Positions 16,643 through 41,004 of a DNA stretch of 55,093 nt are shown piece by piece (position 1 is the stretch's first letter; every line of letters begins with the position of its first letter). The notes below the pieces were generated by a model that had not been told where the DNA came from, made no database searches, and saw nothing but the letters and a program-made list of their open reading frames with translations. The stretch comes from Acidimicrobiia bacterium (GTDB taxonomy: Bacteria; Actinomycetota; Acidimicrobiia; Acidimicrobiales; CATQHL01), in assembly GCA_021296415.1 (NCBI GenBank), contig JAGWAL010000012.1:1-55093 (forward strand). Reading direction: 5' to 3'. Made by a program: the position numbers and the translations under genes.

Positions 16643-16761
16643 ACCTGCGAGCGTACCGGTTCCGTTGCCGCCGGCCGGGAGGTGTCGCGCCCGTTGGAGC
16701 CGCCGGTGGCGCCGCTAACGTCACAGCCACCGGATCATCCTCGACCTTGGAGCCGGCAAGC

Positions 16762-17256
16762 ATGTCCGACAGCATCGACCAGACCCCCGAGCAGGCGGAG
16801 ATCGTCGAGGCCGAGGCGCGCGGCGCCGAGGAATCGCAGGGAGACGCCATCGAGCAACCGGCCAAGGTGATGCGTGTCGGCGCCATGCTGCGCGGCCTCC
16901 TGGACGAGGTCAGGGAGGCGCCGCTCGACGAGCGCAGCCGCGATCGGCTGCGGGACATCTACGAGATTTCGCTGCAGGAACTGGGTTCGGCGCTCTCACC
17001 GGACCTGCGCGAGGAACTCGAGCGCCTGGCGCAGCCGTTCCCCGAGACCGAGGTTCCGACGGAGGGGGAGTTGCGCGTCGCCAAGGCGCAGCTGGTGGGC
17101 TGGCTGGAAGGGCTTATCCAGGGCATACAGGCCACGCTCTACGCCCAGCAGCTCATGGCCCGCCGGCAGTTGGCGGACATGCGGGGCCAACTGCCCCCGA
17201 TCCGCTCCGCGGCAGAGGGCCGCACACCGGAGGATCGACCCGGCAACTATCTCTGA
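16762..17256 (+). CDS. bpa: bacterial proteasome activator Bpa/PafE (DUF2587)
   Basis: EQPAKVMRVGAM..LLDEVR, ELRVAKAQLVGWLEGL, C-terminal GNYL (HbYX). Confidence 0.92.
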   Translation: MSDSIDQTPEQAEIVEAEARGAEESQGDAIEQPAKVMRVGAMLRGLLDEVREAPLDERSRDRLRDIYEISLQELGSALSPDLREELERLAQPFPETEVPTEGELRVAKAQLVGWLEGLIQGIQATLYAQQLMARRQLADMRGQLPPIRSAAEGRTPEDRPGNYL

Positions 17257-17338: not shown

Positions 17339-17474
17339 GGCGCAAGGCGTCGCAAAGCGGCCCCCCGGACCCCTCCCTCGGGGTTTGGTCCGTCCGCTCG
17401 GGGCGTGGGCGGTGGTCTGATGCTCGAGAGTCCGGATGCGGCTATGGTCGGCGGTGAAAGGACAGCGCTGTCAT

Positions 17475-17483
17475 TTGTCCACA
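17475..17483 (+). promoter_or_regulatory. DnaA box TTGTCCACA abutting the dnaE RBS
   Basis: Perfect match to the TT(G/A)TCCACA consensus, overlapping AGGAGG at 17483-17488. Confidence 0.55.
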
Positions 17484-17498
17484 GGAGGTGGGGACATC

Positions 17499-20400
17499 GT
17501 GGGGACTGTCTCGGGACGCGGTGAGAGATTCGCACACCTGCACGTCCACACCGAGTACTCGATGCTCGACGGCGCGGCGCGCGTCGATGAGCTGGTGAAG
17601 GCGGCGGCAGCGGACCGCCAGCCGGCGCTCGGGATCACCGATCACGGGAACATGTACGGGATCGTCCCGTTCTACAAGGCCTGCCGGGACGGAGGGGTCA
17701 AGCCGATCCTGGGCATCGAGGCCTACCTGGCTCACGAGGACCGCCGCGAGCGGCCGGCCCGCCGGGGGCGGCTGGACGACAGCGGCGGCGAGACGGCCAC
17801 CGGGCACAAGCTGTACTACCACCTGACCCTGCTGGCGGAGAACGGGGCCGGGTACCGGAACCTCGTCCAGATCGCAAGCCGGGCGTTCCTGGAGGGCTAC
17901 TACTACAAGCCCAAGGTGGACTGGGAGGTGCTCTCGGAGCATGCGGAGGGCATCCTGGCAACCACGGGGTGTCTTGGGAGCCACGTCTGCCAGGCGCTGC
18001 TGCAGGACGACTTCTCGTCGGCACTGGCCTACGCGGGTCGCCTACGGGACATATTCGGGCCGGCCGGCACGTTCGTCGAACTCCAGGATCACGGCATCGC
18101 CGCCCAGAAGCGGATTATGCCGCAGCTCCTGGAGATCGCGGGACGGCTGGACATCCCGCTGCTGGCCACGAACGACAGCCACTACACGAATCGCGCCGAC
18201 TCCGTGGCCCACGACGCCTTGCTGTGCGTGCAAACCGGGAGCGTCCGCAGCGACCCCAACCGGTTCCACTTCGAGGGTGACGAGCACTACCTCAAGACGG
18301 CGCGGGAGATGCGAGCGCTGTTCTCCGAGTTGCCGGCGGCCTGCGACAGCACGTTGGACATCGCCGAGCGCTGCAACGTCGAGATCACCTTCGGCGACAT
18401 CAAGCTGCCTCCCTTCCCGGTACCGGAGGGGTTCGAGTCCGCCGACGCGTATCTCGAGCACCTGACGCTGGAGGGCGCGCGGCACCGTTGGGGGGAGCGG
18501 TTGCCGGAGGCCACCGCCGACCGGCTGGCCTACGAGTTGCAGGTCATCCGCACCATGGGCTTCGCCTCGTACTTCCTCATCGTCTGGGATCTCATCAGGT
18601 ACGCGCGCTCCGCCGGCATCCGGGTCGGCCCCGGGCGCGGCAGTGCCGCCGGATGCGCCGTCTCGTACTGCCTCGGCATCACGAGCCTCGACCCGTTGCA
18701 CTACGACCTGCTCTTCGAACGGTTCCTCAACCCCGGGCGCCGCCAGATGCCCGACATCGACATGGACTTCGACTCGCGTCACCGGGACGATCTGATCCGC
18801 TACGCCGCCGACCGCTACGGGCGCGACCACGTGGCGCAGATCATCACGTTCTCCACCATCAAGGGGCGTGCCGCGGTGCGCGACGCGGCGCGCGTGCTGG
18901 ATCACCCGTACGCCACCGGCGACCGGATCGCCAAGGCTGTTCCCGAGCCGATCATGGGCCGCACGACCCCGCTGAAGGCGTGCCTGGAGCGCGACAGCGC
19001 CTACAGCGCCGGCTACGAGTTGGCCGGCGACCTGCGCACGATGTACGCCGAGGACCCCCAGGTGCGGGAGGTCGTGGACGTGGCGCTGGGCCTCGAGGGA
19101 CTGCGCCGCCAGGACGGGATCCACGCCGCCGCGGTCGTGATCTCCCCTGATCCCCTCACCGAGCACGTGCCTGTCCAGCGCAAACCCACCGACAAGCAGA
19201 AGGCCGACGAGGCGCCCATCGTCACGCAGTACGACATGGACGCCGTCGAGGAACTCGGCCTGCTCAAGATGGACTTCCTCGGCCTGCGCACCCTCGACGT
19301 CATCACCGACACCGCGGCGCACGTTGCACGGCTGCGTGGCCTCGAACTGGACGTCGACGCACTGGCGCTGGACGACCGGCGCACCTACGAGATGCTCCAG
19401 CGCGGCGATACGACAGGGGTGTTCCAACTGGAGAGCCCGCCCGTGCGCGCCCTGCTGCGATCGCTGTTGCCCAGCAACATCAACGACGTCTCCGCCCTGG
19501 TGGCGCTCTACCGGCCGGGGCCCATGAAGGACAACATGCACATCACCTACGCCGACCGCAAGATGGGGCGGGCGGACGTGGAACTCCTGCACCCCGCCGC
19601 CTCGGAGATCCTCGCCGACACCTACGGACTCATGATCTACCAGGAGTCCATGATGCGGATCGCCCAGCTCTTCGCCGGCTACACCCTCGAGGAGGCCGAC
19701 AACCTGCGGAAGGCGTGCGGCAAGAAGATCCGCCAGAAGATGGCGGAGGAGAAGGAGAAGTTCATCGACGGCTGCGAGGCCACCGGCTACGGCCGGCGCG
19801 TGGGGGAGCAGTGGTGGAACCAGATCGAGCCGTTCGCCGACTACGCCTTCAACAAGAGCCACTCCTACGCCTACGGCCGACCGCCTACCTCAAAGCGAAC
19901 TACCCGGTGGAGTACATGGCCGCGCTCCTCACGAGCGTGCGGGACAAGATGGAGCGCCTCACGCCGTACCTGCTGGACTGCCGCCTGCAGGAGATCGACG
20001 TGGTGGTGCCCGACGTCAACGAGTCGTTCTCGGACTTCACGCCGGTGCTGGACGATGCCTCCCCCGATCGGGGCCGCATCCTCTTCGGGCTCGCGGCGGT
20101 GCGCAACGTCGGCGCCGCCGACGCCGCCCACATCATCGCGGCCCGGTCCGACGGCGGCTCGTTCATTGACTTCGACGATTTCTGCGACCGGGTGGATCCA
20201 TCGGTACTGAACAAGCGCACCGTCGCCTCGCTCATCAAGGCCGGAGCGTTCGACTCGCTGGATCATCCCCGCCAGGGGCTGCTCAACGTGCACGGGCGAA
20301 CGATCGATGCGGCCATGGCGGAGCGGCGCGACCGGGATGCCGGCGTCCTGAGCCTGTTCGGTGACGCCGGGGTGGCGACCGGCTACAACAGCAAACCCGT

Positions 20401-21031
20401 CGTGCCCGACATGCACGCCCCGCGCGAGCGCATGCTGGCCGACGAGAAAGAGATGCTGGGGCTGTACATCAGCGACCACCCCCTCGAGGGCATCGAGCAG
20501 ATCCTCGCACCCAGGAGGGAGCGCAGCGTTGCCGAACTGGTGGAGCTGCCCGACGGCTCGGTCGTCACCGTGGCGGGAGCGATCACGTCGCTGGCGAGGC
20601 GTCAGACCCGCAACGGCGCGCACATGGCCACGTTCACCCTCGACGACCGGACCGGGATGATCCCCGTCACGGTCTTCCCCCGGGCGCTGGAGGCCCAGGA
20701 TGGGTTGCTGGTCGACGAGGCGGTGGTGATCCTGCGCGCCCGTGTCGACCGGCGGGAGGAGGAGCCGAAGCTCATCAGCATCGGACTCGAGGGATTCACG
20801 GCCGAGACCCGCGGCGCGCTGCGCCTGCACTTCCCGACCAACGGCGTGACCGAGGACCGGCTCTCCGCCCTCAAGGCCCTCCTCGGCGAGCACGGGGGTG
20901 ACTCTCCCGTCGAGATCCAGGTGGGCAGGACGTACCTGTTGCAGCTGCCGCAGGAGTACCAGGTCGACACCGAGGCGGGCCTCGTGCCCGAATTGCGCCA
21001 ACTTCTGGGAGTCCACGCCGTGCAGGTCTGA
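17499..21031 (+). CDS. dnaE: DNA polymerase III alpha subunit, frameshifted near 19878 (probably assembly error)
   Basis: HLHVHTEYSMLDG, GPGRGSAAG, MPDIDMDF, GLLKMDFLGL, YAFNKSH; continues in another frame as TAYLKANYP...EKEMLGLYISDHPL and OB fold. Confidence 0.93.
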
Positions 21032-24295: not shown

Positions 24296-26296
24296 TCAGG
24301 CGGCGTCGCGGAGGCGGTCTCTCAGTTCGCCGACGTCGCTGGTGGGGGCTTCGCAGACGTAGCCCCGGCACACGTAGGCGGCGCCGTCCGGGCGCTGGGC
24401 CCACAGCGGTGAGTCGTACGGCTCGCCCCAGGCCAGCACGGCGTTGGGCAGCCACTGCCGGTGGACGACCTCGGTGAGGTCGGGGCGATCGCCGGTGATA
24501 ACGATCTCGGTGGCGCCGGCGGCGTGCAGGTCCAGGGCGCACAGCAGGTTGCCGAAGGCGCTGGGATGCTGGCCGGCCAGCGGTCCCAGTAGGCCCAGGA
24601 TGGCCTCCGCCCGCTCGTGGTACTCCGAGGCTCCCGCGAGGGCTCCCAGCCGGAGCAGGCCGAGCGCGGCGGCGCTGTTCGCCGACGGGGTGGCGTTGTC
24701 GAACAGGTCCCGGGGGGTCGCCACGAGCGGCTCGGCGTCACGCCCGCAGGTCAGCAGCCCGCCGCCCTCGGGATCCCAGAACAACTCCAGCAGGTCGTCC
24801 GCGGTGCGGCGGGCCTCGGCGATCCAGCGCGCGGCTCCGGTCGCCTCACCCAGGCGGCAGAAGGCGTCGAGCATGGCGGCGTAGTCGGCGGCGCAGGCCA
24901 GGTGGCGGGCTTCTGCGGGGCGAGTGGCGTCGCCTGCCTGCCAGGACCGCAGCCAGCGGCCGTCGGGCCGTCGCAGGTTGGCGGTCACGAACTCCCCGCA
25001 GGCCACGGCCGCCGCCAGCCAGTCGGCGTTGCCGGTGGCGGTGGCGGCGACGGCCAGTGCGGACATCGCCAGACCGTTCCACTCGGTGAGCACCTTGTCG
25101 TCGAGGCCGGGGCGCACCCGCTCCGAGCGAGCCCCGAACAGCGCCCGGCGTGCCTCTTCCACCTCCGGCGGCCGCAGGAGGTCGCCGCGTACCGGCCGCC
25201 AGAGGATGTTGGCACCCTCGAAGTTGCCCTCGGCGGTGGCTCCGTACCAGTCGATGGCCGCCTCGGCGGCGTCCCCCGCGGCGGAGCGGATCTCGTCGAT
25301 GCTCCAGACGTAGAACTTGCCCTCGACGCCCTCGGAGTCGGCATCCTCGGCGGAGGCGAAGCCGCCGCCGGCCAGGCGCAGATCGCGCAGCAGGTACCCG
25401 ACGGTCTCATCGACCACCCGGCGGTAGCGGGCCTTGCCGGTGGCCTGCCAGGCCCGGGTGTAGAGCCCGAGGAGCAGGGCGTTGTCGTAGAGCATCTTCT
25501 CGAAGTGCGGTACCAGCCAGCGTTGGTCGGTGGCGTAGCGCGAGAAGCCGCCGCCCAGGTGGTCGTAGATCCCGCCCGAGGCCATGCAGTCCAGACTGTT
25601 GACCACCATCGCCAGTACGTCGTCGTCGCCGGCATTGCGCCAGTGGCGCAGGAGCGCCTCGAGGGTCATGGCCTGCGGGAACTTGGGGGCGTGGCCGAAG
25701 CCGCCCCAGGCGGCGTCGTACTGGGGCCGCAGCGCCGCTGCCGCCCGAGCCAGGATCTCACCCTCCGGCGGGCCACCGCCCGACGCCAGTGGCAATCGAG
25801 CGGAACGGTCGAGCGCCTCGGTGATGCGCCGCGCCTGGTCCTGCACGTCGCTGCGGCGGTCCTCCCAGGCCTCGTGCACCCGCTGGAGCACGTCGCTGAA
25901 GGACGGCATGCCTTGGCGGGAGGTGGGGGGGAAGTAGGTGCCGGCGAAGAACGGCTCACCCTCCGGCGTCAGGAAGACGGTCATCGGCCAGCCACCGTGC
26001 CCCGTGAGTGACGTGACCGCCTCCATGTAGAGCGAGTCCACGTCGGGGCGCTCCTCGCGATCCACCTTGACGTTCACGAACAGCCGGTTCATGCGTTCCG
26101 CCGTGGCGGGATCCTCGAAGGATTCGTGCGCCATGACATGGCACCAGTGGCACGACGAGTACCCCACCGAGAGCAGCACCGGCTTGCCGGAGCGGCGGGC
26201 CTCATCGAAGGCCTCGGTTCCCCAGGGGTACCAATCCACCGGGTTGTCGGCGTGCTGGCGCAGGTAAGGGCTGCCCTCGGTGGCGAGGCGGTTCAC
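24296..26296 (-). CDS. thioredoxin-domain protein YyaL/SSP411 (DUF255)
   Basis: [43 protein letters not shown] motifs; TATGCT-N6-GTG start. Confidence 0.92.
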
Positions 26297-26421
26297 GCGC
26301 CGAGCATAGGGGTCGCGGGCGGCTGGCCTGCGACGAGCCCCGCTGAGCGCAACGAGAGGCGTCGTCGGCTCGCCGAGCCGGTTGCAACGGGCGAGACCTG
26401 CGGTCCGGTAGCGTCCCGGGC

Positions 26422-27396
26422 GTGACGCGGGTGCGGGAGTGGGTCGCCGGAGCGAGGCCGCGCACGCTGCCTGCCTCGCTGGCGCCGGTCCTCGCCGGCA
26501 CGGCTGCAGCTGCCCGACCAGGCTTCGGGTGGGGTCAGGGCCTGATCTGGTGGCGCCTGGCAATGGCACTCGTGGTGGCACTGGCCCTGCAGGTGGGCGT
26601 GAACTACGCCAACGACTACAGCGACGGCGTGCGCGGCACCGACGACGAGCGGCGGGTTGGTCCGAGGCGTCTCGTTGGCTCCGGTCTCGCCGCTCCGGAG
26701 GCCGTGCGCCGCGCCGCGGCGGTTGCCGGCCTCGTGGCGGGAGGCGCCGGATTGGCGCTCGCCGCGGCCGCCGGCTGGGAGCTGGTGATCGTCGGTGCCG
26801 CGTGTCTCGCAGCCGGCTGGTTCTACTCCGGCGGCCGCCGTCCGTACGGGTACCGCGGCTGGGGCGAGGTGGCGGTCTTCATCTTCTTCGGCCTCGTGGC
26901 AGCGGTCGGCAGTGCCTACGTGCAACTGGAGGCGATCACGGCCCGCAGTGTCTGGGTGGGAGTGGGCTGCGGCTGTCTGAGCTGCGCATTGCTGGTCGTC
27001 AACAACCTGCGCGACATCGAGGGTGACGCCGCCGTCGGGAAGCGCACCCTGGCCGTCCGCCTGGGCGCGGCGCCCACGCGGCTGCTGTACGCCGTGCTGG
27101 TGCTGGGGGGTTTCGCGGCCCTGGCACCGCTCACCGCCGATGTCAGCTGGCCACCGCGGGGGTTGCTGGCCGATTCGCCCGTCGACCCCATCGAGTTGGC
27201 GCAGCTGAGCGCCGGGGAGCCCTGGCCACTGCTGGGCCTGGCCGCTGTTCCCCTGGCAGTCGTGCCGCTGCGAAGGGTTCTCCGCGGTGACCGGGGCGTC
27301 GATCTCATCGACGTGCTGGCCGCCACCGGCCGCCTGCTGGCCGCCTACGGCCTCACGATCGCCGCCGGCCTGTGGGTGGCGGCGGTCTTGGCGTAA
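26422..27396 (+). CDS. menA: 1,4-dihydroxy-2-naphthoate polyprenyltransferase
   Basis: [30 protein letters not shown]...GKRTLAV motifs. Confidence 0.92.
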
Positions 27397-36179: not shown

Positions 36180-36958
36180 TGCTGCTGTTCCCGGCCATCG
36201 ATCTGCGCGGCGGGCGCTGCGTGCGCCTCTACCGGGGTGACTTCGGCGCCGAGACCGTCTACGCGGAGGACCCCGAGACGGTGGCGGCGTCGTTCGCCGC
36301 GGCGGGTGCGCCGTGGCTGCACGTCGTGGATCTCGACGCGGCGCGATCCGGTGAGCTCACCAACCTCGCCCAGGTGGCCGCAATCGTCACCGCCGCCGGC
36401 GTGCCGGTGCAGTACGGCGGGGGAGTGCGGTCGGTGGCCGCCGCCGCGCAGCTCGCGAGCTTGGGCGTGGCCCGCGTCGTGATGGGGACCGCGGCTCTCG
36501 AGAACCCCGCGCTGCTCGCAGAGATCTCGGCCCGCCAGCCGGTGGCGCTGGGGCTGGATGTCCGCGGGCGCGAGGTCGCCGTGCGGGGTTGGCGCGCCGG
36601 CAGCGGACGGAGCCTCGGCGAGGTGCTGGCCACCGAGCCCGCCGTGGAGGCCCTCGTGGTCACGCAGATCGCCACCGACGGCACCCTCGGCGGCCCCGAT
36701 GTGGAACTGCTGGCCGAGGTACTCGCCGCCACGGACCTCCCCCTGATCGCCTCGGGCGGGGTCGGCGATCTGGCGGATCTGCGGCGGCTCGCCCGCCTGC
36801 GGGCCGGCGGGCGCTCGCTGGCCGGCACCATCGTCGGGCGCGCCATCTACGAGCGGACGCTGAGCCTCGCCGAGGCCCTGCGCGAACTCGCCGAGGAGGC
36901 GGCGGCGCCACCGGGAGCCTCGCCGGCCGGGCGGGACAGGGGAAGGGCGCAGCCGTGA
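36179..36958 (+). CDS. hisA: ProFAR isomerase HisA
   Basis: [30 protein letters not shown]. Confidence 0.93.
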
Positions 36959-37737
36959 GTTCGACCGTCGTCCGCATCATCCCCTGTCTCGACGTCGACG
37001 CGGGCCGGGTGGTCAAGGGTGTGGAATTCGTGGATCTGCGAGACGCCGGCGATCCGGTGGAGCTGGCCGCCCGCTATGACGCCGAGGGAGCCGACGAGCT
37101 GGTCTTCCTGGACATCACAGCCTCCTCCGACGCCCGCGACGTGATGCTCGAGGTGGCGCGGCGCACGGCCGAGGAGGTGTTCATCCCGTTCACCGTGGGC
37201 GGCGGCATCCGCAGCACCGGCGACGCCCGCCGCCTCCTGCGAGCCGGCTCCGACAAGGTCTCGGTCAACACCGCCGCGGTGGCGCGCCCAGCGCTGATCT
37301 CGGAGATCGCCGAAGAGTTCGGCACGCAGTGCGTGGTCGTCGCGATCGACGCACGGTTGGATGCGTCGGGCCGGTTCGAGGTGGTCACCCATGGCGGGCG
37401 GCGGCCGACCGCACTCGACGCCGTGGAATGGGCGGCACGCGCCGAGAGTCTCGGTGCCGGCGAGATCCTCCTCACCTCCATGGACCGTGACGGCACGAAG
37501 GAGGGTTTCGATCTGCCGCTCACCGCCGCCGTCAGCGCTGCCGTCAACGTGCCCGTCATCGCCTCGGGCGGTGTGGGATCGCTGGAGCACCTGGCCGAGG
37601 GCGTCGGCGCCGGGGCGGACGCCGTGCTGGCGGCGTCCATCTTCCACTTCGGCGAGTACAGCATCGCCGAGGCCAAGACGGCGCTCTCCGCAGCCGGTGT
37701 CCGGGTCCGGCCCGTCAAGGCCGCCGCGGACGGGTAG
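36955..37737 (+). CDS. hisF: imidazole glycerol phosphate synthase cyclase subunit
   Basis: [36 protein letters not shown]. Confidence 0.96.
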
Positions 37738-37746
37738 CGTCGCGGC

Positions 37747-38118
37747 GTGTCGACTTCGGAGAACTCCCGGCCCTCTCTCGGCGCGGCGACACCGGCCCCC
37801 GACGACAAGCTCCCGGTCAAGATGCTCAACGACCGGATCATGGTGCGGATCGGCCCGGCCGAGGGCGAGCGCCGCTCGTCGGGCGGCATCCTCATCCCCG
37901 CGACCGCGCAGGTGGGCAAGCGTCTCACCTGGGCGGAGGTCGTTGCCGTCGGCCCCAACGTGCGATCCATGGAGCCGGGCGACAGGGTGCTCTTCAACCC
38001 CGAGGATCGCTACGAGGTGGAGGTCAGGGGCGTCGACTACATCATCCTGCGGGAGCGTGACGTGCACGCCGTGGCCGCCCAACGGCTCGAGGAGGGGAGC
38101 ACCGGCCTCTACCTCTGA
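37747..38118 (+). CDS. orphan GroES/Cpn10-like protein with C-terminal GLYL tail
   Basis: LNDRIMV, SSGGILIP mobile loop, VVAVGP, GDRVLF, YIILRERDV; no groEL adjacent; TAGCGT-N6-GTG start. Confidence 0.88.
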   Translation: MSTSENSRPSLGAATPAPDDKLPVKMLNDRIMVRIGPAEGERRSSGGILIPATAQVGKRLTWAEVVAVGPNVRSMEPGDRVLFNPEDRYEVEVRGVDYIILRERDVHAVAAQRLEEGSTGLYL

Positions 38119-38158
38119 GAGTCGCGGCGTCCGCGGGAGGCGCCCCTAGCATGAACGG

Positions 38159-38512
38159 ATGACCGTCGCCACGCCCATCACGCCCGCACCGGGCGCCCTC
38201 GAGTCGGTCGTCTTCAATGCCGACGGTCTGGTTCCCGCCATCGTGCAGGACCACGACACGGGCGCCGTGCTGATGCTTGCCTGGATGGACGACGAGGCTC
38301 TGCGACGCACCCTCGCCACCGGGAGGACCTGGTTCTGGAGCCGTTCCCGCCGGGAGTACTGGTGCAAGGGTGAGACCTCCGGCGACCGGCAGTACGTCCG
38401 CGAGGCGTACTACGACTGCGATGGCGACACCCTGCTGATCAAGGTGATCCAGGAGGGCCGCGGCGCCTGCCACACGGGTGAGCGCTCGTGTTTCTTCACC
38501 TCTTTCGGCTGA
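38159..38512 (+). CDS. hisI: phosphoribosyl-AMP cyclohydrolase
   Basis: [35 protein letters not shown]. Confidence 0.95.
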
Positions 38513-38519
38513 GGGCGCC

Positions 38520-40028
38520 GTGAGCGCCCGACCCGGCAGGGAGGAGTTCGGCCGCCTGGCGGTCGGCCATCGCGTGGTGCCGGTCTGGCGGGAACTCCTG
38601 GCCGACTTGATCACACCGGTGGCGGCGTTCTCGCGGATCGTGGGCGACGAACCGGGGTTCCTGCTGGAGTCGACCGAACGCGGCAACCGCTGGAGTCGCT
38701 TCTCGTTCATGGGGTGTCGCCCGCGGGCCAGGATCGTGGCGAAGGGCCGCCGGCTCGAGATCAGCGGCGACGACCTCGGCCCGGTGCCCACCGAGGCAGG
38801 CGTGCTGGCGGCGCTCGAGGTGATCCTGGAGCGCTTCAAGTCCCCCGCCATGGAGGGGCTGCCGCCCCTGCATTCCGGCCTCGTCGGCTACATCGGCTAC
38901 GACATCGTGCGCGAGGTGGAGCACCTTCCGAGCGCACCGCTCGACGATCTGGGGATGCCCGACGCGGTGCTGGACGTGATCGGGCGGCTGGTGGCGTTCG
39001 ATCACTGGCGCCAGCGGGTCCTCCTGATCCACAACGTGATCCTCCCGCCCGAACCGTCGGAGGCCTTCCTGGACGACGCCTACGAGCGAGCGCTCGCATC
39101 GCTCGACGAGCTGGCCCGCGCCGGGGCCCGGCCCCAGCCCGAGCCGCTGCTGGCACCGCCGGGCGACAACGACCCGTTGCCCGAGATCACATCGACTTGC
39201 ACCCGCGACGAGTACTGCGCGGCGGTCCGCGCCGCCAAGGAGCACATCCTCGAGGGCGACATCTTCCAAGTGGTGCTGTCCGAGCGCTTCGATTTCGACC
39301 TGCAGGCCGAGCCCTTCCAGCTGTACCGATCGCTCCGGCAGGTCAACCCCAGCCCGTACATGTACTTCCTGCGCCAGCCGGAGGTCACCCTGGTGGGGAG
39401 TTCACCCGAGCCGATGGTGCAGTTGCGCGACGGGAGGGTGACCTCGCGCCCCATCGCCGGCACCCGGCCGCGCGGTGCCGATGAGCGGGAGGACCGTCGG
39501 CTCGCCGGCGAGCTCGCCGAGCATCCCAAGGAGCTGGCGGAGCATCTGATGCTGCTGGACCTGGCGCGGAACGACGTCGGCAGGGTGGTGCGGCCCGGCA
39601 CGCTGCGCACCGAGGAGCAGATGACACTCGAGTACTACAGCCACGTCATGCATCTCACCTCGCAGGTCGCCGGCGAGTTGGCCGAGGGGCACGGCCCCGT
39701 GGACGTGTTGCGGGCGACCCTGCCCGCCGGGACCGTCTCCGGAGCTCCCAAGGTGCGCGCCATGGAGATCATCGACGATCTTGAGACGACCCGGCGCGGG
39801 CCCTATGCAGGTGTCGTGGGCTACCTGGACTTCTCCGGCAATCTCGACACGGCCATCACCATCCGCACTGTTGCCGTGCGCGACGGCCGCGCCCACCTGC
39901 AGGCCGGCGCGGGCATCGTCGCCGACAGCGTTCCGGAGGAGGAGGAGTTGGAATGCCGGGCCAAGGCGCGGGCACTGCTGGCGGCAGTGCACGCTGCGCG
40001 GGCCATGACCCGCGACGCCGGCGGGTGA
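38520..40028 (+). CDS. trpE: anthranilate synthase component I
   Basis: FLLES, GDIFQVVLS, NPSPYM, PAGTVSGAPK, QAGAGIVADS. Confidence 0.93.
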   Translation: MSARPGREEFGRLAVGHRVVPVWRELLADLITPVAAFSRIVGDEPGFLLESTERGNRWSRFSFMGCRPRARIVAKGRRLEISGDDLGPVPTEAGVLAALEVILERFKSPAMEGLPPLHSGLVGYIGYDIVREVEHLPSAPLDDLGMPDAVLDVIGRLVAFDHWRQRVLLIHNVILPPEPSEAFLDDAYERALASLDELARAGARPQPEPLLAPPGDNDPLPEITSTCTRDEYCAAVRAAKEHILEGDIFQVVLSERFDFDLQAEPFQLYRSLRQVNPSPYMYFLRQPEVTLVGSSPEPMVQLRDGRVTSRPIAGTRPRGADEREDRRLAGELAEHPKELAEHLMLLDLARNDVGRVVRPGTLRTEEQMTLEYYSHVMHLTSQVAGELAEGHGPVDVLRATLPAGTVSGAPKVRAMEIIDDLETTRRGPYAGVVGYLDFSGNLDTAITIRTVAVRDGRAHLQAGAGIVADSVPEEEELECRAKARALLAAVHAARAMTRDAGG

Positions 40029-40038
40029 GCACGGCGCC

Positions 40039-41004
40039 GTGAGAGTCTCCGAGCGCTACCTCGAGGACTACCGGGCGTTGCGTCACGGCGCGGGAGCGGT
40101 GGTGACCGGTCGCGACGTGCTGGAGGTGCGGGGGGAGGACGCGGCGGGCTTCCTGCAGGGCCAGCTCAGCCAGGACGTCGACGCGCTGGCACCCGGTGAC
40201 GTCGTTCTCTCCCTGCTGCTGCAGCCCGACGGCAAGCTGCAGTGCCTCCTGCGAATCAGCCGAGCCGGCCCGGATCGGTTCCTCTGCGACCTCGCGGCCG
40301 GCGAGGGCGAGGCGGCCCTGGCACGGCTCGAGCGCTTCAAGCTCCGCGTGGCGGCGGACATGGAACTGCGGCGGCTCAGCATGGTCGCCGTGCGGGGTCC
40401 GGAGGCCCCGGCGCTGCCGCGGCTCGGCGCCGGCTCTGCCGCGAGCGCTGCGACCGGCGACTCCCATGGCGGCAACGGCGATCCCGGGAGCGCCATCGTG
40501 GCGGCGCCGGTGCGGTGGGGGAGCCTGCCGGGCTGGGATCTGGTGGCCGGCGAGGTGACGCCGCCGCCGGGGGTGCTTCTCTGCGACCCCGCGGCACTCG
40601 AGGCGGTGCGTATCGAATCGGGCGTCCCCGCAGCGGGCTGTGAGCTGACGGCGGGCCTCATACCCGCGGAGGCGGGCATCGTGGCCGAGACGGTGAGCTT
40701 CACGAAGGGGTGCTTCGTGGGTCAGGAACTGGTCGCCCGGATCGATAGCCGGGGAGGCAATACGCCGCGGCGGCTGCGCGGCGTCGTGCTCCCCGATGCC
40801 GAGGCGCCTCCCACCGGCACGCCACTGGTGGACCTCGACGGCAAGGCGCTGGGGCGCATCACCAGCAGCGCCTTCTCGCCGACCTTCGGTACGGCGGTGG
40901 CCCTGGCGTACGTCCACCGTCGTGCCGACCCTCCGGCGCCCGCGCACCTCGGCGAGTCGGGCGGGCCGGCCTGCGAGATCCGGCCGCTCCCGCTTGTGCC
41001 GTGA
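40039..41004 (+). CDS. ygfZ: YgfZ/GcvT-like folate-binding protein
   Basis: FLQGQLSQDV and KGCFVGQELVAR signature. Confidence 0.88.
   Translation: MRVSERYLEDYRALRHGAGAVVTGRDVLEVRGEDAAGFLQGQLSQDVDALAPGDVVLSLLLQPDGKLQCLLRISRAGPDRFLCDLAAGEGEAALARLERFKLRVAADMELRRLSMVAVRGPEAPALPRLGAGSAASAATGDSHGGNGDPGSAIVAAPVRWGSLPGWDLVAGEVTPPPGVLLCDPAALEAVRIESGVPAAGCELTAGLIPAEAGIVAETVSFTKGCFVGQELVARIDSRGGNTPRRLRGVVLPDAEAPPTGTPLVDLDGKALGRITSSAFSPTFGTAVALAYVHRRADPPAPAHLGESGGPACEIRPLPLVP

Follow-up and report, generated by a model that had tools for sequence, protein, structure and literature searches.

A GroES-like protein ending in a proteasome-docking-type tail is probably an undescribed proteasome cap in Actinomycetota

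A GroES-like protein encoded in the window (the whole stretch of Acidimicrobiia DNA analysed here, 55,093 nucleotides) is probably an undescribed proteasome cap. It belongs to a real, widespread and very conserved family of GroES paralogues, previously known solely under the annotation 'co-chaperone GroES', and both the C-terminal tail and the distribution of this family point to the 20S proteasome. From these comparative data we infer, with moderate confidence, that the family forms an ATP-independent ring which would dock on the 20S alpha ring via its C-terminal tails. The features of the gene and its product are collected in Table 1.

Table 1. Coordinates of the GroES-like protein gene, of the parts of its product and of Bpa in the window
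Feature	Position	Strand	Basis
GroES-like protein gene	37747..38118	+	ORF, Pfam Cpn10, codon-position GC, family alignment
Variable N-terminus, residues 1-22	37747..37812	+	family alignment; pLDDT 64, 56 (first two ten-residue blocks)
Cpn10/GroES beta-barrel domain, residues 24-109	37816..38073	+	Pfam; genome search; AF2 model; Foldseek
Mobile-loop equivalent, approximately residues 36-58, GPAEGERRSSGGILIPATAQVGK	37852..37920	+	alignments; pLDDT 67, 66 (residues 41-60)
Site of the missing roof hairpin, GPNVRSMEPG	37951..37980	+	HMM alignments; conservation
Linker, residues 111-118, AQRLEEGS	38077..38100	+	family alignment; AF2 model; loci read
TGLYL tail, candidate 20S alpha-ring docking motif (HbYX / G-x-Y-L type)	38101..38115	+	homologue ends, alignment
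Bpa (bacterial proteasome activator), ends PGNYL	16747..17256	+	Pfam BPA E=1.4e-56

The ORF comprises 123 codons and a stop, and reads out as a GroES-like protein with a TGLYL tail. Its codon-position GC (0.71/0.49/0.91) has the pattern of a coding frame, in a window with 70.7% GC. The GTG at 37747 is the sole in-frame start 5' of the conserved LPxKMLxDR motif. It stands 9 bases past the stop of hisF (36961-37737), and hisI starts at 38159 (both neighbours named by Pfam); the gene sits within a conserved his-trp gene row, with hisF on one side and hisI on the other. No promoter-like or terminator-like sites were found in 36900-38700, which is a weak test for a high-GC organism. RNA runs containing 36900-38600 were not listed, and the DNA of the region was present in four runs of one study. 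The first-pass annotation had described a leaderless-type start; this, and a promoter of the gene's own, were not supported, since the GTG follows closely behind hisF in a conserved his-trp row and no promoter-like site was seen. For the same reasons, the gene looks like an operon-internal member of that row.

Residues 24-109 of the protein matched Pfam Cpn10 (PF00166; E=3.8e-18; 65.8 bits vs. a cut-off of 21.1). Fourteen NCBIfam co-chaperone GroES models were also matched, all of them under their cut-offs (46.4 bits vs. 96 for the best). Homology to Bpa (PF10759) was not found: Pfam searched at E values up to 1 returned only Cpn10 and a sub-threshold ADH_N (GroES-like) match. The AlphaFold2 model of the protein, built on 37 family members, has a mean pLDDT of 78.9, and residues 61-110, at 91-95, form a confident GroES beta-barrel. 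Confidence falls in the loop at residues 41-60 and at both termini (mean pLDDT 64 and 61 for residues 111-123); the N-terminal residues 1-22, which differ in sequence and length among homologues, are probably disordered. The top-ranked Foldseek matches of the model were Cpn10/GroES chains (best E=2.4e-7), and the protein is 24-35% identical to solved Cpn10/GroES chains.

Alignment of the family profile to solved GroES chains revealed a 9-residue gap precisely at the position of the roof hairpin, bearing out the statement in the first-pass annotation that this hairpin is absent. At the roof site, G69 is invariant and V72 and R73 are nearly invariant in the family alignment. The GroES mobile loop was said to be kept, and in the profile alignments SGGILIPATA indeed aligns with the mobile loop of the solved chains, with the hydrophobic tripeptide present (G-[IL]-[LV]-IP core). 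The stretch is strongly conserved in the family (R42, G47, I50, P51, T53 and A54). Conservation of a GroES-like mobile loop could mean that GroEL binding was retained. Since the first and last strands, those joining GroES subunits, are conserved in the 37-sequence alignment, it is a natural assumption that the subunits would form a GroES-like ring, presumably of seven.

Beyond the Cpn10 core the protein runs on for 13 residues, to ...AAQRLEEGSTGLYL-stop; GLYL-stop occupies 38104-38118, the position originally claimed. TGLYL is the end of 119 of the nearest 120 database proteins, and TGVYL that of the remaining one. A second homologue set consisted of 150 representatives of 50%-identity clusters. 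The alignment extends to the C-terminus in 85 of these representatives, and each of the 85 ends x-[G/C]-x-Y-[L/V] (75 TGLYL and 10 variants, including one AGQYL); the remaining 65 are fragments or have unrelated-looking ends, which were taken as frameshifted gene calls. When both sets are pooled (120/120 and 85/85 ending x-[G/C]-x-Y-[L/V]), TGLYL accounts for 194 ends and other variants for 11. Across the 37 aligned sequences, G120 and Y122 are invariant and conservation is at least 90% at L121 and L123. The linker ahead of the tail varies in sequence and is 7-10 residues long across homologues. At 26 loci read from many Actinomycetota families, 21 proteins end TGLYL and 5 end PGQYL. The suggestion that actinobacterial paralogues also end TGLYL, given as unverified in the first-pass annotation, proved correct. 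PGQYL was found in 5/5 loci of a divergent branch with 46-53% identity (four f28 genomes and one f52 genome). According to the minireview PMC12288473, Mpa and PafE/Bpa depend on the GQYL motif for opening the mycobacterial proteasome, the Q being non-essential.

Only three stop-to-stop frames of at least 40 aa in the window's own assembly end G-x-Y-[LIVMF], namely ARC (TGQYL), Bpa (PGNYL) and the GroES-like protein. ARC adjoins dop-prcB-prcA-pafA on contig 8; Bpa, whose GNYL end had been read correctly before, lies in the window 21 kb from the GroES-like protein gene, in a separate operon. Hydrophobic C-terminal tails can serve as degrons, and the tail might mark the protein itself for degradation or recognition, e.g. 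by ARC or another protease, and not be a docking element. We give this next to no weight, given that G-x-Y-L is position-specific at the extreme end of the protein, is of the same type as the two validated docking tails of the genome, and is exactly GQYL in one branch.

The distribution of the family was analysed in 401 genomes across Actinomycetota, in which the proteasome was scored by PF00227. The family profile separates two groups in these genomes, members scoring at least 108.8 bits and ordinary GroES copies at most 64.1 bits. The family was present in 125 genomes and the 20S proteasome domain in 199. All of the family genomes have the proteasome (125 with both, 0 with the family alone), 74 genomes have the proteasome without the family and 202 have neither; co-occurrence with prcAB is complete in this direction (125/125 vs. 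0/202 in proteasome-less genomes). These tallies take in 14 unpublished genomes, all with a proteasome match; minus them, the four counts are 120, 0, 65 and 202. The proteasome-less set includes 3-5 Mb genomes at 97-100% completeness and so comprises more than tiny genomes. The two-by-two table overstates the evidence because related genomes are not independent, and about four independent joint absences were identified. Within one genus, the proteasome, Bpa and the family are all present in one genome (G379) and all absent from another (G062; 100% complete, 2 contigs). In family f21, the three genomes of one genus (g45) have neither proteasome nor GroES-like family, and of the other 16 genomes all have the proteasome and 15 the GroES-like family. 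Both are present in one genome and absent from another in f39 (G216 and G037) and in f59 (G165 and G230). A link between the family and the proteasome is strongly supported by this comparative evidence. Because 74 of the 199 proteasome-bearing genomes lack it, the family is dispensable for proteasome function in general.

Bpa (PF10759), a validated activator, served as a yardstick and was found in 162 of the 401 genomes, 160 with a proteasome match and 2 without (one of these two is highly fragmented and the other just 70% complete). The 199 proteasome-bearing genomes divide into 100 with the family and Bpa, 25 with the family without Bpa (mostly from families f21 and f22), 60 with Bpa without the family, and 14 with neither.

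A second Cpn10-type match was present in 117 of the 125 family-positive genomes. In five out of five near-complete genomes of the same order, canonical groES (106-111 bits with Pfam Cpn10) stands directly upstream of groEL, and both this groEL and a second one, which stands alone, are over 700 kb away from the GroES-like protein gene (56-65 bits). The family is a GroES paralogue, distinct from housekeeping GroES. Searches of the window and of the assembly it belongs to gave neither groEL nor canonical groES; absence from the latter is uninformative because the assembly is just 77.5% complete. The earlier remark that no groEL is nearby agrees with the window and with the distances in all five relatives.

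The order hisF - GroES-like protein gene - hisI/trpE is kept in most Acidimicrobiia loci, and the neighbours in three named Streptomyces records are rph, rdgB, bcp and a tail-anchored membrane protein. No neighbour common across lineages was found among the clustered neighbours of 23 loci from different families; gene neighbourhood was rejected as a clue to function, as the Acidimicrobiia and Streptomyces contexts differ. Linkage to prcAB was likewise rejected, the genes never adjoining and same-contig distances ranging from 26 kb to more than 1 Mb. The Bpa gene is likewise separate from the proteasome locus, for instance in the window's own genome. Fusions gave nothing systematic among the 112 longer relatives found: most carry the Cpn10 domain alone behind long N-terminal extensions, and the others are single records fused to neighbouring genes (HisF, HisI, TrpE or an aldo-keto reductase), most simply explained as merged gene calls.

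Named records with the family come mostly from Acidimicrobiia metagenome genomes and three come from Streptomyces. The Streptomyces members share 71-72% identity with the protein from the window, an unusually high value for a comparison between classes. Their tail-anchored neighbour resembles SCO2900 as described in PMC3087755, and SCO2899 is named a 'putative GroES-family molecular chaperone' in PMC2631018, where it is reported to go down on acid shock and groES and groEL to go up. On the basis of this gene context and annotation, SCO2899 is the probable Streptomyces coelicolor member of the family.

The Cpn10 domain and fold, the mobile loop with its G-[IL]-[LV]-IP core and the public annotation as co-chaperone GroES would all suit a plain second GroEL co-chaperonin, whose tail has a chaperonin role or one that does not involve the proteasome. 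Such a protein is very unlikely here because of the phyletic pattern (the family is found in 0/202 proteasome-less genomes, which retain GroES) and the branch with the exact GQYL tail. The missing linkage to groEL and the scores under all NCBIfam GroES cut-offs also speak against it, as does, if SCO2899 is an orthologue, the opposite response of SCO2899 and groES/groEL to acid shock given in PMC2631018.

We favour a scheme in which a GroES paralogue would have been recruited to the proteasome system. Its subunits would form a GroES-like ring, presumably a heptamer, and each would project a short flexible linker ending G-[L/Q]-Y-L. The tails would enter the pockets between the 20S alpha subunits (PrcA), as Mpa/ARC and Bpa/PafE do with GQYL; the ring would thus share the axis of the seven-fold alpha ring and need no ATP to sit there. 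If a ring is formed, the missing roof hairpin would leave an open axial hole over the gate. The likeliest outcome would be gate opening or access control for unfolded proteins or peptides. The rim of the GroES heptamer, which carries the C-termini, measures about 70-75 Å across, close to the diameter of the circle formed by the docking pockets of the 20S alpha ring. Going by this general geometry, linkers of 7-10 residues could let seven tails reach seven pockets coaxially.

Docking was also modelled by co-folding residues 20-123 of the GroES-like protein with two PrcA copies (residues 1-228, 31-sequence alignment). The co-fold scored 0.53, 0.52 and 0.49 vs. 0.00 in the three controls, with a partner pLDDT of 63 and a run agreement of at least 26% of contacts. 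In the calibration, 58 of 80 solved complexes scored high enough to pass, as did 2 of 110 mismatched pairs. Scores of 0.60 or below were obtained for just 7 of the 80 solved complexes, and for both mismatches that passed. Unless the proposed pairing was already likely on other grounds, a pass of this kind is wrong in more cases than it is right. We read the predicted complex as weakly and mildly favourable to docking.

The first-pass annotation had proposed either a proteasome cap or a chaperonin-proteasome adaptor. The proteasome link stood, on the comparative evidence; the adaptor found no specific support. An adaptor would bridge the two machines, holding GroEL by its mobile loops and the proteasome by its tails and passing failed clients on to degradation, and both the loop and the tail are present and conserved. 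The mobile loops and the C-terminus of GroES leave the same rim or face of the dome. Because loops and short tails would leave the same ring face, an adaptor is sterically awkward, and with a linker of just 7-10 residues one ring would hardly engage both partners coaxially at once. We hold this arrangement to be highly improbable.

For a ring docked on the 20S proteasome, we tentatively suggest a function as gate-opener, although our confidence in this is low. The roofless, seven-fold GroES-fold ring would be a symmetry-matched, ATP-independent gate-opener of 11S-like architecture, partly interchangeable with Bpa and the sole such cap where Bpa is not found. In that case the conserved 'mobile loops' would have taken on a new task, contacting the alpha ring or holding substrates. 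A docked ring might instead act as a negative regulator or placeholder competing with ARC and Bpa, or as an alpha-ring assembly chaperone, and all of the comparative docking evidence fits this equally well. A chloroplast co-chaperonin cap represses ClpP according to 10.1101/2021.07.26.453741, and eukaryotic and archaeal proteasome assembly factors work via HbYX motifs according to PMC4254994. The 25 genomes without a Bpa match speak slightly more for a positive role like that of Bpa than for pure competition, and we regard regulation by competition, or assembly, as rather unlikely. A role overlapping the access-controlling one of Bpa is preferred because the family persists with the proteasome in these 25 genomes.

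The claim that no such factor had been described agrees with the literature searched (main texts of openly accessible papers), in which no paper linking a GroES-type protein to the bacterial proteasome was found and one 2026 review names groES solely as a regulon member. Three bacterial proteasome partners or activators, Mpa/ARC, Bpa/PafE and Cpa, are named in the text of the 2025 minireview PMC12288473 that was consulted. All three were discovered from mycobacterial genomes. Bpa was discovered via its conserved HbYX end and its co-occurrence with prcAB, starting from the M. tuberculosis genome, as related in PMC4254994; the same logic of conserved tail and prcAB co-occurrence was used here. 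Several large proteasome-bearing families lack the GroES-like family in the sampled genomes, and the named Streptomyces have it. M. tuberculosis is not known to have a GroES other than the canonical one. A search anchored in M. tuberculosis, like that for Bpa, would probably have missed the family.

If the docking is true, the GroES-like protein would be the fourth proteasome partner and the first to share the symmetry of the alpha ring. It would also be an example of a chaperonin lid turned protease cap, and a handle on ATP-independent degradation in Streptomyces and in the abundant environmental Acidimicrobiia. The docking prediction is within reach of routine biochemistry.

In comparison with known systems, the protein shares its domain, fold and mobile loop with canonical GroES/Cpn10 (PF00166), but it lacks the roof hairpin, has an added linker and tail, is encoded outside the groES-groEL operon and does not reach the NCBIfam GroES cut-offs. 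With Mpa/ARC it shares the type of tail (in its own genome, TGQYL in ARC and TGLYL in the GroES-like protein). ARC, by contrast, is a 586-aa hexameric ATPase that recognises Pup, whereas the GroES-like protein has 123 aa and no nucleotide-binding domain.

The resemblance to Bpa/PafE (Rv3780 family, PF10759) is broader. Both are small, ATP-independent and presumably ring-forming proteins with a flexible C-terminal stretch that ends G-x-Y-L, both are confined to prcAB bearers (160/162 for Bpa), and both are encoded away from the proteasome locus. However, Bpa forms a Pfam family of its own, with no sequence or fold relationship to the GroES beta-barrel. Bpa is a dodecamer according to PMC12288473, whereas the GroES-type ring would be seven-fold, matching the alpha ring. 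The distributions of the two also differ (25 genomes with the GroES-like family without Bpa and 60 with Bpa without the family).

The eukaryotic 11S activators (PA26/PA28) are heptameric, ATP-independent rings with an axial channel, which insert C-terminal tails into alpha-ring pockets. As a heptameric, ATP-independent, tail-docking ring, 11S resembles the GroES-like protein as proposed here; the fold is unrelated, and the 11S tails are not known to follow the HbYX tyrosine rule.

A precedent for a GroES-type ring on a seven-fold protease ring is the Cpn11/20/23-ClpP complex of Chlamydomonas (PDB 7ekq). Cpn20 of this complex was the best sequence match of the GroES-like protein among solved structures (E=4.7e-22), and 7ekq was also among the structure matches. 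In the alignment the first domain of Cpn20, like the GroES-like protein, is without the roof insertion. The chloroplast Cpn11/20/23 caps the ClpP core through its mobile loops, represses ClpP and is also a working Cpn60 co-chaperonin, as described in 10.1101/2021.07.26.453741; its docking by mobile loops, its partner and its second function all differ from those proposed here. Unlike Cpn11/20/23, the GroES-like protein is a dedicated paralogue with a proteasome-type tail.

The family gene, which encodes a GroES-like protein (ending in TGLYL in the window), was also found under unexpected taxonomic labels. Three records titled Bifidobacterium MAGs (L065, L088 and L095) and one titled Acidobacteria (L051) carry it in an Acidimicrobiia-type his-trp context (66-83% identity); their titles seem to result from misbinning or mislabelling. 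In one unpublished actinomycetotal genome (G148), the family profile gave four matches on contigs C143, C151 and C152. Two of the four are 44-residue frames that cover only the C-terminal part and the tail, so these two could be fragments of additional copies or the result of split contigs.

The trp row of the window includes a gene for a GcvT-like folate-binding protein, located at the same position in most of the Acidimicrobiia loci examined. Elsewhere in the window, dnaE (DNA polymerase III alpha) is broken into two overlapping frames, through a frameshift or else a fault in the assembly, and a large thioredoxin-like protein is encoded on the opposite strand.

The Pup-proteasome locus of the window's assembly is complete and has the usual gene order. 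In this locus prcB and prcA correspond to two PF00227 matches, while the remaining gene names were assigned by eye from ORF translations.

Features of the window and of contig 8 of the same assembly
Feature	Location	Strand	Content or context
Bpa	window 16747-17256	+	
dnaE	window 17436-21031	+	
dnaE frame 1	window 17436-20210	+	PHP, NTPase, finger domains
dnaE frame 2	window 19715-21031	+	HHH_6, OB-fold domains
Thioredoxin-like DUF255 protein	window 24296-26581	-	PF03190; 760 aa
GcvT-like protein	window 40039-41004	+	PF01571 + PF08669; between trpE and trpC
Pup-proteasome locus	contig 8, 21228-29793	-	arc, dop, pup-sized gap, prcB, prcA, pafA, pafBC-like fusion, then tatA/tatC-like genes

The residue preceding the tail tyrosine varies within this one genome (N in Bpa, Q in ARC and L in the GroES-like protein), because ARC, encoded on contig 8, ends in TGQYL and the window's Bpa ends in PGNYL, not in the canonical GQYL.
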